From Amoebidium appalachense (Eukaryota; Protista; Ichthyosporea): a stretch of 64,000 nt of DNA. Below the pieces are notes generated by a model. The model ran no database searches, had not been told where the DNA came from, and saw only the letters and a list, made by a program, of their open reading frames with translations. The position numbers were made by a program, and so were the translations under genes. Location of the stretch: NCBI GenBank assembly GCA_963693365.1, contig CAVNZM010000001.1, positions 6,774,907 to 6,838,906 of the forward strand, read 5' to 3'. Below, piece after piece: positions 364-23,481 of this stretch (positions are counted from its first letter, which is position 1; every line of letters begins with the position of its first letter).

Positions 364-3300
364 CCTGATTAGCACCCTTCAGGTAGTCAAAACGCATCCT
401 CCTCAAGCTATCGTTGTCCGGGTACCTTGGCTGTAGCAGAAGCCACGATTTATCCTCCTCTGCATCGGCGTAGTAGAACCCAGGGGGACGTGTGAACTTC
501 TTGGCTTCAGTGATGTAACTGACAATGTAGATGTAGCCTGGTGCCGCAGGCTTTGTTAGGTGGGTGGTGGTGCTGCCCTTGGTCGGAGCATCATAGATGA
601 AGGTGTCGTAGAGGTATTGCTGATCCATCAGCACCTTGCAGAGGGGCATTGTGGCCTGGTGGCCCGGGAACGAGGCAACAAGAACCCAGTCGCTGCAGTT
701 GAACTGCTCGTTCAGTTGTGTTACTCTGTTGGAGTGGAATTGTGTGAGAGTACGAACTGGTGCAAAATGCTTACAGAGGCCGTGGCTGTGAGCGTGCGTG
801 TGTTGGAAAGCCAGGGGTGAAGAGGGTGGAAAGGGTGGAAAGGGTGGAGAGGGTGGAGGGGAGGGGAGGGGGGGGGGGGGGGGTACAGGTCAGGAGATGG
901 AGGTTACATGCCCCGCTTACTGCCAGTGGTTTAGGGTTCAATGACATACAGATACCAGGAAAATGTGCCCCCCCCCCCCCCCCCCCCCCCCAATCAATGA
1001 TTGTGGGATGTGGGACCCACCACACCTGTGCACACGTACAGCTCATCATCGCCATTCCAACAGCATGCACACCCACCACGTTCAAACATGCCTGTAGCAC
1101 CATCACCCACTCTCCTTGTACACCACCATCGCAAACCACTACCCAATTTTCACTGCATGAACCCCCCATTCCGGATCCGCCGGCACCCATGCAAGATGGA
1201 CCCAGCACACCGATGCACACACACACACGTGTGTGTGCGCGTGCGTGTGTTTGTGTGCGTGTGTGTGGTTAGATATGGGTGCATGAGCACGTGTACGTGT
1301 ACATGTGTGTTTGTGTGCGTGTGTGTGTGTGTCTGTGTTGTATTGTGTGTGTGTGACAGAGAGAGAGCATCCGTGTGTTTGCATGTGTGTGTGTTGTGGT
1401 GTGTTTGTGCTTGTGCTTGTGTTTGTGCTTGTGTTTGTGCTTGTGTTTGTGCGTGTGTGTGTGTGTGTGTGTGAGGGTGATAAGGAAAGGGAGGGGTGGG
1501 GAGGGAGAGGATGGCCAACTCTTTTCTATGTGCCAAACAGGGCCAGTGGTAGCAAGTGGTGAGGTGGGACAAGAAGAAGGAGGGAGGGGGGAGGGGGGGG
1601 GGGGGAGGGGGGTCAGAATGTGCCATAGAGTACGAAGAACATACTCACGACTTGTGTTTGTGTTTGTGCTTGTGTGTGTGTGTGTGTGTGTGTGTGTGTG
1701 TGTGTGTGTGTGTGTGTGTGTGTGTGTGTGTGCGCGCGCGCGCGCCCGTGCCCGTGCCCGTGCCCGTGCCCGTGCGTGCGTGTGTGCGTGCGTGCGTGTA
1801 CACTGGGTGACACTTGAATGCATGGGCACGCTTGTGTTTGTGTTTGTGTTTGTGTGCTACATGTGCCGGCCACTACACATCTCTGTGTGTGTGTGCTCGT
1901 GTCGTTGAGTTCACACGACGTCGTACATGACATTGTAAGCATGGTGCATTGTGCATGTGTGCTTGTGTGCCACTGCCAGTGGATTTGTGTGTGTGTGTGT
2001 GTGCATGTGAGTCCGTGTGAATCCGTGTGAGCGTGTGTGTGGGTTGAGGGCGGCTAGTAGGATGCTAGGAGGAGAGTCCGCAGGGGCGCCGGGGGGAGGG
2101 GGGAGGGGGGGGGGGGAGGAGAGAGGGGGGGGGGGGGGGGGGGGGGGGGGCAGGGCAACAATTGAATCTGGTATAAAACTTGTAGCCTACCTTTTTAAAA
2201 GAGATTTCCAGTTTGCCTCTGTGAAGGGCACCTCATTGGCCTCAAACTGGCGTGAGGTGACCTCAAACTCAGTACTGGCAGGAGGGTCGATGCGCACGTA
2301 GGGAAAGCCCCCCTGCAAAGGTGCTGTAAGCCAAACCACTCCAGATCTTAATCTTCTTGCCTACAATTTACCACAATAACAATAATAAAGCAACACCACG
2401 GCAGAATCAGCATCAGAAACAGTCATCTTTGAGGGTGATTGCATCGGCTAAAAAGATTAGGGAACGGGATATTGAGACCAACTTGAAGAAAAACGCGAAC
2501 CACATACCCTAGGCTCGGCGAGCCTCTTGATCTGCTGCTGACCCTCTGCAGACAGCTCAACCCCTGCCAGCTTTTTGAGGTTGTCTCGGATGTAGGCGGA
2601 GGTGATGGTGTTCTCTGCAGTGACGTCACCTTGCAGAACAGCGTACAGGGTAGAGGCAGGCTGCCGCTGTGTTTGCGGGTCCTCGAGTGCAGCAACGAAT
2701 CTGTTGATGCCGCAAAACGCCGCTGCCCCCTGCCTGGCCCAAGCTTTGATCGAATTGATCAGGGAATTCACGGCGTGCAAGCCGGATGGGTCCTTCTTCT
2801 TGAGAAAGGGGATGGCCATGTTTGCCAACTCTGCATCTGATGGGAGGGCCGGTCCGATGTACTTCCTGACCTGTAATTTGAAAGAGGGAAATGGCAGGTG
2901 TGAGGGGGGGATTGTGAAGGGTGGCGGGAGGGGTGGCGGGGGGTGGCGGGGGGGGGGGGGGGGGGTTTACATTATGTGTGGATCCTAGTATTTGGGAGCA
3001 CACCGTTGAAAAGGAATAACTAATCAGCAAAACTTAGCCATTAACTGCTGCTGTAGGAAGAAAAAAGACGGAGGTGTGGGAAAGGGGAACGTCGGGGGGG
3101 GGGGGGGGGGGGGGGGGGGGGGGGGGGGGGGGGCACGGGCTGTATTATTAGCCCATATCTGAAGAATTGTTCGACTTGTAATCAGTTTTGACCGGCAAAC
3201 GTAACTTAAATGTTCTGATGCCGAACCAACTCCAAACATCTTAACATGCAGCACGCAAGGGTGCATATGCTGTTGAAAAGCGGTGGAGAGGGGAAGCTGA

Positions 3301-23000: not shown

Positions 23001-23481
23001 GGTGCACACTTGGGACGACGCACAGAATACTCCCGGATCAGACTACTTGGGGGAATTTTGTGTGGCGAAAGTAATTCATATTGAAAATCCAGAGGCCCTA
23101 CCGGCTGATAGAACTTTTTGGGTGCATTGGTGGTGTCCTGATGGTGTGGCTAGTGATCTGAGATATGACGCAAAACTGCAACCTATGTTTATTCACAAGG
23201 AAGATCCTGCAAGGCAGACTTCCACTACCTTTCCAGTTTTGACTTGCACAGATAAAAGTTTTCAGGGGTTCTATAGGCCGAATGTACAGAAGGAGCAGTT
23301 AAAGGAATATGTTCAATGGATAGACCCTGTGAAATTCGAGAATATGTGTGGGACGATTTCTACCGGAAGTAGTTTTCTTGGAAAATCGGGTAAGGGTAAC
23401 AGGTTCAATGTTGTAAAATCTCAATTAATGGCATTGCTCGAATTAAGCAAATCGGAGGTCAAGCGGGGTTTGGAAAAATAA
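14085..23481 (+). CDS. DUF7869/Sola-like DDD transposase, ~1050 aa, 7 exons
   Basis: Exons 14085-14680, 15005-15127, 15543-15633, 17264-17521, 19084-19188, 20005-20250 (or 20246), 21748 (or 21744)-23481 join in frame. Motifs: [32 protein letters not shown], and the catalytic-type triad VIVDSMDQ / [10 protein letters not shown] / [15 protein letters not shown]. Confidence 0.85.
20305..21290. repeat. ~540-bp imperfect tandem duplication in transposase intron 6
   Basis: CCATCACCACCACCACCATCATTAC..CACACCTGACAAC..CCAAA..(CA)n..AGTCA..TCGTGGAGGAGGG..(GT)n..GCGCAAGCACTTG occurs twice. Confidence 0.85.
21565..21692. repeat. Array of five ~25-bp palindromic units (TCCTAGTTGTAACTAGGA) in the last transposase intron
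   Basis: Read directly. The first unit extends to a 34-bp near-perfect palindrome, TGACGTCATCCTAGT-ACCA-ACTAGGATGACGTCA. Units degrade rightwards. Confidence 0.9.

Follow-up and report, generated by a model that had tools for sequence, protein, structure and literature searches.

In the algal literature on transposable elements (TEs), some giant DNA transposons are proposed to encode ParB-methylase proteins that bind and mark the element carrying them, a proposal for which the accessible parts of that literature report no test. The 21.5-kb element Sola1-1_Ec32 of Ectocarpus encodes, on the opposite strand, a 1104-aa (amino acid) protein with ParB-like and N4/N6 methyltransferase parts, and this protein is suggested to bind, and to modify, the element that encodes it; the termini of Sola1-1_Ec32 read AACCG-CGGTT with a 4-bp target-site duplication (TSD), and proteins similar to its accessory protein are cited from green and red algae (PMC12477816). 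In Bostrychia, Plavaka elements have, beside ParB-like accessory genes, arrays of inverted repeats that are proposed to be binding sites (10.1101/2025.02.11.637652). Here we describe a locus of comparable design in the ichthyosporean Amoebidium appalachense, located in a stretch of 64,000 nucleotides of assembly GCA_963693365.1 (contig CAVNZM010000001.1, positions 6,774,907 to 6,838,906; hereafter the window), in which a Sola-type transposase gene and a large accessory gene diverge from a common spacer. We lean towards reading both genes as one young, multi-copy, Sola-type cut-and-paste transposon of more than 23 kb, with an accessory protein predicted to act mainly by binding palindromes within its own element.

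An earlier note on this DNA, made from the sequence alone, implied a novelty that was too high, since a matching design is already in print for Ectocarpus as described in PMC12477816. What is new is the host, a holozoan (ichthyosporean) that is culturable and has published methylomes: Amoebidium grows axenically and has a chromosome-scale genome, silencing of TEs by 5-methylcytosine (5mC), and nanopore maps of 5mC and N6-methyladenine (6mA) (PMC11244446, PMC12695648). The available main text and two supplements of the genome paper (PMC11244446) make no mention of ParB, N4-methylcytosine (4mC) or Sola transposons. No published description of the Amoebidium element was found, and TE libraries, figures, subscription papers and bioRxiv supplements may hold one.

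Coordinates given here are positions in the window, and residue numbers for the minus-strand gene are those of its 1099-aa spliced in-window product (Table 1). The two intron-rich genes stand head to head as the earlier note had drawn them, and both are spliced and transcribed, as seen from a transcriptome protein for the plus-strand gene and an intron-free contig for the minus-strand gene. The plus-strand gene had been called a DUF7869/Sola-like transposase, and its last exon indeed matches PF25273 (DUF7869) with an E-value of 7e-34. A search with this exon returned 11 proteins, all of them PF25273, headed by P0001 at 100% identity. The 1050-aa EukProt entry P0012, which belongs to the P0001 cluster and is labelled Amoebidium parasiticum (presumably the strain now called A. 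appalachense), agrees with the gene model at 1049 of 1050 residues, so that the transcriptome confirms all six junctions of the gene, including those with GC donors after exons 5 and 6. We take DUF7869 to be Sola, and the choice of catalytic acids is likewise our assumption: D498, D579 and the GHTHE motif are invariant in all ten aligned transposase sequences, D618 and D620 are kept in eight of the ten, and a CxxC motif and the subsequent H/R/Y motifs are conserved in the alignment. By eye, neither the QxDN nor the GHTHEDID motif of the transposase occurs in two Sola2 proteins shown in the PMC3627910 supplement, so that its catalytic-core motifs appear unlike those of the Dictyostelid Sola2 transposases. 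A relative, P0002, is 57% identical across the last exon and sits on a 2.2-kb contig, and no transposase relative with flanks was found in metagenome or viral contigs. In addition to the full-length protein there is a short isoform, P0001 itself (782 aa), which starts with Met-Thr joined to exon 4 (17264, plus strand); an ATG with a GT donor that would fit this start was spotted by eye in intron 3 (16429-16434, plus strand).

That the two genes form one element of more than 23 kb, as had been claimed, is probable from their similar and greatly raised sequencing depth and from a sharp right boundary. In the DNA run X2, depth is 1024-2083 on the minus-strand exons among the eight contigs listed and 1884 on the transposase contig, against 31-78 in the flanks among the seven contigs listed; by medians worked out by hand, the excess over the flanks is about 34-fold for the minus-strand gene and about 39-fold for the transposase gene. 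Since the exon contigs carry no other letters, the copies appear to be near-identical. On the right, the depth in X2 falls from 1484 (bin 23498-23811) to 98 (bin 23812-24125), a contig of run X4 departs from the window sequence behind 23698, and the last-exon contig of run X18 stops at 23658, which together place the boundary about 215 bp past the transposase stop codon. The onward DNA in X4 opens with GAGGG, the complement of the CCCTC of the candidate end, and could represent new flanking sequence, a neighbouring copy placed head to tail, or more of the element itself. The stretch from one first exon across the spacer to the other is present in 20 of the 24 runs listed, with at least half its words in 17, from seven studies. 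No pair of terminal inverted repeats (TIRs) was found within the spacer, nor any terminus-like repeat between the two genes, and the last 14-18 bases of the right end have no partner elsewhere in the window at up to two mismatches. Holes in the X2 cover (6341-6657, 7292-7608 and 21300-21927, the last including the palindrome array described below) and a transposase exon without X4 cover are neutral as evidence. Taken together, we think it quite probable that the two genes are mobile as a unit.

The minus-strand accessory gene is indeed a set of 14 joined exons, with GT-AG introns and zero stop codons. Its last in-window exon exists, but the end proposed at 364 does not hold: the splice donor there was dropped, since the X18 contig puts the exon end at 344. 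This contig is 4686 nt long and intron-free, and it carries the accessory exons in order, which chance would not produce; no listed run is recorded as RNA, and X18 is treated as RNA by inference, with its intron-free contig. Eleven of the 13 junctions are supported, five as adjacent positions on the contig, four from two contig gaps whose lengths, 121 and 115 nt, fit exon 13 (122 nt) and exon 11 (114 nt), one from depth across exon 4, and the last from a loose end identical to the first bases of the window interval of exon 3; junctions 1-2 and 2-3 lie outside the compared stretch. The contig extends 1185 nt to the left of position 344, room for at most 395 further codons, and 30 of its loose letters, translated by hand in frame, give KPVNVERALI directly after CPQQ. 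Word-based searches of longer proteins with exon 12 or exon 8, which are weak negatives, returned no relatives. Two matches to exon 12 among 1.84 billion representatives were dropped, both being repeat proteins. The accessory protein had no match in prokaryote genomes or viral contigs, phages gave one match at E 8, and exact look-up of three unspliced frames was blank.

All the motifs that had been read from the spliced minus-strand product are present, namely NPR (aa 454), GGQHT..A (542), Y..LT.EE (577), HHN (591), LQGD (889) and IDPP (939). For comparison with known families, profiles were built from references taken out of bacterial loci (proteins of four kinds: 25 N6_N4, 18 DGQHR, 24 ParB_N and 17 MT-A70), leaving out broken and partial rows, some redundant rows and one unpublished genome. 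Run on the whole spliced protein, the DGQHR profile aligns to aa 456-561, right over the RP...GGQH stretch, with a weak score of -1.1 bits that 10 of 300 shuffles reach; on the motif-chosen segment alone it scores 3.1 bits, which 4 of 1000 segment shuffles reach. The ParB_N profile finds no domain on the whole spliced protein, and 71 of 1000 shuffles reach its segment score. From motifs and profile position, a ParB-like fold is probable. The GxxR arginine that characterizes Box II of ParB/Srx proteins is replaced by Thr here (GGQHT), the DGQHR arginine being kept in 17 of the 18 references. In ParB folds, substitution of Arg by Ala abolishes nucleoside triphosphate (NTP) binding (PMC12704722). 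The NTP-clamp activity that had been ascribed to the protein is thus unsupported, the arginine being absent.

Exons 13 and 14 likely adopt a methylase-like fold, a prediction that follows from the motif order and from the spacing between DPP and KP. This spacing is 160 residues to CPQQ-KP in the accessory protein, compared with 155-169 residues to HP(T/A)QKP in five compact references; in other reference methylases it is 235-308 residues, two rows being unusable. To the left of the window, where the earlier note looked for the FxGxG exon, the transcript reads on into the KP motif, spaced as in compact beta-class enzymes. FxGxG, which follows about 21 residues further on in the references, would fall outside the window. 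Methylase activity, which had also been claimed, is unsupported, given DPPA in place of DPPY/F/W and no significant match to a methylase profile. The motif [DNS]PP[YFW], the catalytic signature of PF01555, occurs in 23 of the 25 reference methylases and is replaced by DPPA here. There is no listed difference at DPPA in either the RNA run X18 or the DNA run X2, so that DPPA looks like the family state. Nothing came of the N6_N4 comparisons (scores equalled in 361 and 562 of 1000 shuffles, the domain being cut by the window edge) or of the MT-A70 profile (86 of 1000), and pairwise profile comparisons yielded probabilities of 0.1-1.2%. LQGD, which had been taken for the N-terminal motif of the methylase, is present in the letters and was rejected in that role: it lies 49 residues before DPP, compared with 19-25 residues between the GD motif and motif IV in 19 references, and it closes a predicted helix in exon 12, whose single-sequence model is all-helical with a predicted local distance difference test (pLDDT) score of 52. 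Foldseek with this poor model found nothing at an E-value of 0.001 or lower, and the single-sequence model of exon 14 is also poor (pLDDT 39.6). Given the correct fold, methyl transfer by the accessory protein would still be doubtful.

The candidate binding sites of the accessory protein are 18-bp palindromes, of which five stand in an array in the transposase gene and one in the spacer. At up to two mismatches the palindrome has six matches in the window, compared with 0.06 expected, and all six lie within the element, the 40 kb on its right being free of them. The pattern was derived from the array, and the spacer copy is its sole independent test. At three mismatches, one extra palindrome appears in the spacer and one outside the element, with 1.5 expected. 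The palindrome in another register was non-significant (4 of 100 shuffles), and a search of metagenomes for the subterminal pattern found nothing. Intron 6 of the transposase gene holds further features at 21439-21717: an X18 contig within it covers the palindrome array, a loose end at 21446 matches exon 6 sequence, pointing to possible alternative splicing, and a 53-bp tandem repeat occupies 21439-21545.

Table 1. Features of the proposed Amoebidium element, in window positions
Feature	Position	Strand	Basis or remark
Accessory gene, 14 in-window exons, 1099 aa, runs on left of the window	344..12615	-	Splices without stops
Accessory exons 1-7	11885-12615, 10459-10611, 10089-10229, 9319-9444, 8377-8605, 7858-8043, 6740-6898	-	
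Accessory exons 8-14	5928-6139, 4925-5096, 3879-4085, 3578-3691, 2508-2870, 2191-2312, 344-725	-	
Predicted permuted (beta-class) amino-methyltransferase-like region, exons 13-14	344..2312	-	DPPA at aa 940-943, ends CPQQ, transcript adds KP
Predicted ParB/DGQHR-like domain, aa ~450-595, exons 5-8	5928..8605	-	RP at 456, GGQHT at 542
Divergent spacer, shared promoter region	12616..14084	.	1,469 bp between start codons 12615 (-) and 14085 (+)
Single 18-bp palindrome, 2 mismatches, in spacer	13262..13279	.	Expectation 0.06 per window at 2 mismatches
Weaker palindrome, 3 mismatches, in spacer	13552-13569	.	
DUF7869 (Sola-type) transposase gene, 1050 aa	14085..23481	+	7 exons
Transposase exons	14085-14680, 15005-15127, 15543-15633, 17264-17521, 19084-19188, 20005-20246, 21744-23481	+	
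Five 18-bp palindromes TCCTAGT-N4-ACTAGGA, 25-26 bp period, candidate binding sites	21573..21691	.	Transposase intron 6
Right subterminal region, candidate right end ~23696-23698 (...GTACCCTC)	23482..23698	+	X2 depth, X4 and X18 contigs

In the reading we prefer, the transposase would cut at the ends and mobilise the whole unit, and the accessory protein would load on two places, the array in intron 6 and the palindrome of the shared promoter. There it may regulate the element or shield it from 5mC silencing, keeping it transcribable, with or without catalysis. Action mainly by binding is suggested because the predicted ParB-like and methylase-like parts are without the usual catalytic residues. 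The self-modifying NTP clamp of the earlier note is the less likely reading, because GGQHT is without arginine, DPPA is without the aromatic residue, and LQGD is misplaced.

Several observations weigh against a single palindrome-binding element. Contig depth is not a formal copy number, and the depths are those of the contigs listed; the X4 DNA behind 23698 could belong to the element instead of being new flank; no contig bridges both genes in another copy; and there is no TIR pair or TSD, because the left end lies outside the window. The palindromes could equally be sites for the transposase. As for the accessory protein, the DGQHR profile supports it weakly and the ParB_N, N6_N4 and MT-A70 profiles lend no support, and no relative was found in the searched collections. 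In addition, young copies in which both genes are intact and transcribed imply selection, and catalysis could be part of what is selected.

The last point bears on the strongest of the alternatives, namely that in the same element the accessory protein is an active amino-methyltransferase, writing 4mC or 6mA on or near the palindromes. The Asp and the two Pro of motif IV are kept, CPQQ-KP and the 160-residue spacing fit compact beta-class enzymes, and the gene is both transcribed and intact. An unusual motif IV is also known from permuted clades of eukaryotes, with DLPY in the Naegleria clade (PMC4738411), and 6mA marks the 5' ends of Amoebidium genes (PMC12695648), so a TE could gain from it. 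However, Ala here takes the place of the aromatic residue stacking against the target base (PMC4738411 Box 1), bdelloid N4CMT loses its activity when doubly mutated to APPA (PMC8885841; with two residues changed, it is a different test), and the motif that binds S-adenosylmethionine would lie outside the window, with no profile support. We therefore regard an active methylase as unlikely. Equally unlikely is its fuller form, in which a giant Sola element still amplifying in this close relative of animals would encode an intron-rich ParB-methylase of prokaryotic origin; the protein would load on the palindromes, write 4mC/6mA via the non-canonical DPPA, and so give the element a private mark against 5mC silencing by the host.

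Somewhat less probable again is that, within the same element, the second gene encodes cargo with a different fold or function, its ParB and methylase motifs being chance resemblances. Taken singly, the accessory exons have no credible match in Pfam, PHROGs, NCBIfam, PADLOC, PDB or Atlas, nor is there a significant match for any tested exon; LQGD is misplaced, and three key motif positions are non-canonical. These library scans, however, ran exon by exon (38-243 aa) and so split each domain, the DGQHR profile picks the predicted stretch unaided on the whole protein, the KP continuation was predicted and then borne out by the RNA contig, and size, orientation and domain order agree with the Ectocarpus protein as described (PMC12477816). 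Least probable is that the two genes are separate repeats, or an amplified segment, adjacent by chance and not one transposable unit. In its favour, a further full copy was not seen, the window stops short of the left end, and tandem gene clusters make up other giant repeats of Amoebidium (PMC11244446). Against it, depth is similar on both genes with no terminus-like repeat between them, the spacer and the transposase gene contain the same palindrome, and the giant repeats described in print have few introns and are flanked by Plavaka, in contrast to the present locus (PMC11244446).

The rest of the window, to the right of the element, contains several other features. Just beyond the right end lies an intronless fragment of an amino-acid permease gene (24057-25262, minus strand) without its 5' part, likely a pseudogene copy, with a frameshift near 24437-24449 where other contigs are without 4 bases. 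An intronless gene for a SLAC1/TDT-family transporter (26518-28134, minus strand; PF03595) follows, and one X18 contig covers 26257-28190. Repeated DNA at 28835-30300 comprises three 57-bp copies and several GAGTAAC-N-GTTACTC palindromes, has raised depth and many loose ends, and probably represents the ends of other transposons. A long terminal repeat (LTR) retrotransposon occupies 30772-49379 (plus strand), with two identical 213-bp terminal repeats, aspartic protease, reverse transcriptase and RNase H; it is Gypsy-like by domain order and looks recent. Its pol is split after RNase H by an insertion of about 8.9 kb (~37507-46406), which has inverted ends of about 30 bp (by eye) and contains 183-bp tandem repeats at 42289-43064. 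Finally, an open frame of 217 aa (57434-58087, minus strand) has no Pfam match and lies amid intron-like simple repeats, possibly as an exon of another gene.

VANDAL transposons, which belong to the Mutator superfamily, encode VANC anti-silencing proteins that recognise motifs in their own element. The palindrome-binding protein that we favour for Amoebidium would be alike in its working, an accessory protein reading the motifs of its own element, and unlike in that VANC is an unrelated protein from another superfamily. Phage and prophage fusions of ParB with N6/N4 methyltransferases (PMC12704722, PMC4738411) share the order of ParB followed by amino-methyltransferase, whereas they are about 520 aa long in the examples given, are intron-free, sit beside terminase genes, and have no detectable similarity to the Amoebidium protein. 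Bdelloid N4CMT (PMC8885841) is, like the predicted region here, a permuted beta-type amino-methyltransferase in a eukaryote; it differs in being a host gene with SPPY and a chromodomain, of proven activity, and not transposon cargo. The Bostrychia Plavaka elements with the accessory genes PAG2 and PAG3 (10.1101/2025.02.11.637652) are giant DNA transposons with methylase (PF01555) and ParB-like cargo. Unlike the present element, however, they have an EnSpm/Plavaka transposase, their ParB and methylase are separate proteins with SET and 2-oxoglutarate-oxygenase partners, and PF01555 is detectable in their methylase and not in the Amoebidium accessory protein.

Closest is Sola1-1_Ec32 (PMC12477816), a giant Sola element in which, as here, an accessory gene lies opposite the transposase, encodes about 1100 aa or more, and is read as ParB-like plus N4/N6 methyltransferase; a large accessory gene opposite a Sola transposase is thus what the Amoebidium locus has in common with the Ectocarpus description. 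The likeness is one of description, GGQHT and DPPA being Amoebidium motifs, and the Ectocarpus accessory protein was returned by no search and by no accessible supplement passage. The two elements differ in host, Amoebidium being a holozoan, in ends (a candidate ...CCCTC compared with AACCG-CGGTT), and in number, with two intact Sola-1 copies in Ectocarpus compared with a depth that suggests tens of near-identical copies in Amoebidium. Loss of both catalytic signatures sharpens the question of whether such a protein is an enzyme or a dead-enzyme DNA-binding regulator. Set beside the algal proposals, the Amoebidium element, which is apparently young, multi-copy and transcribed and has a precise candidate binding site, would make binding and marking testable largely on existing data.

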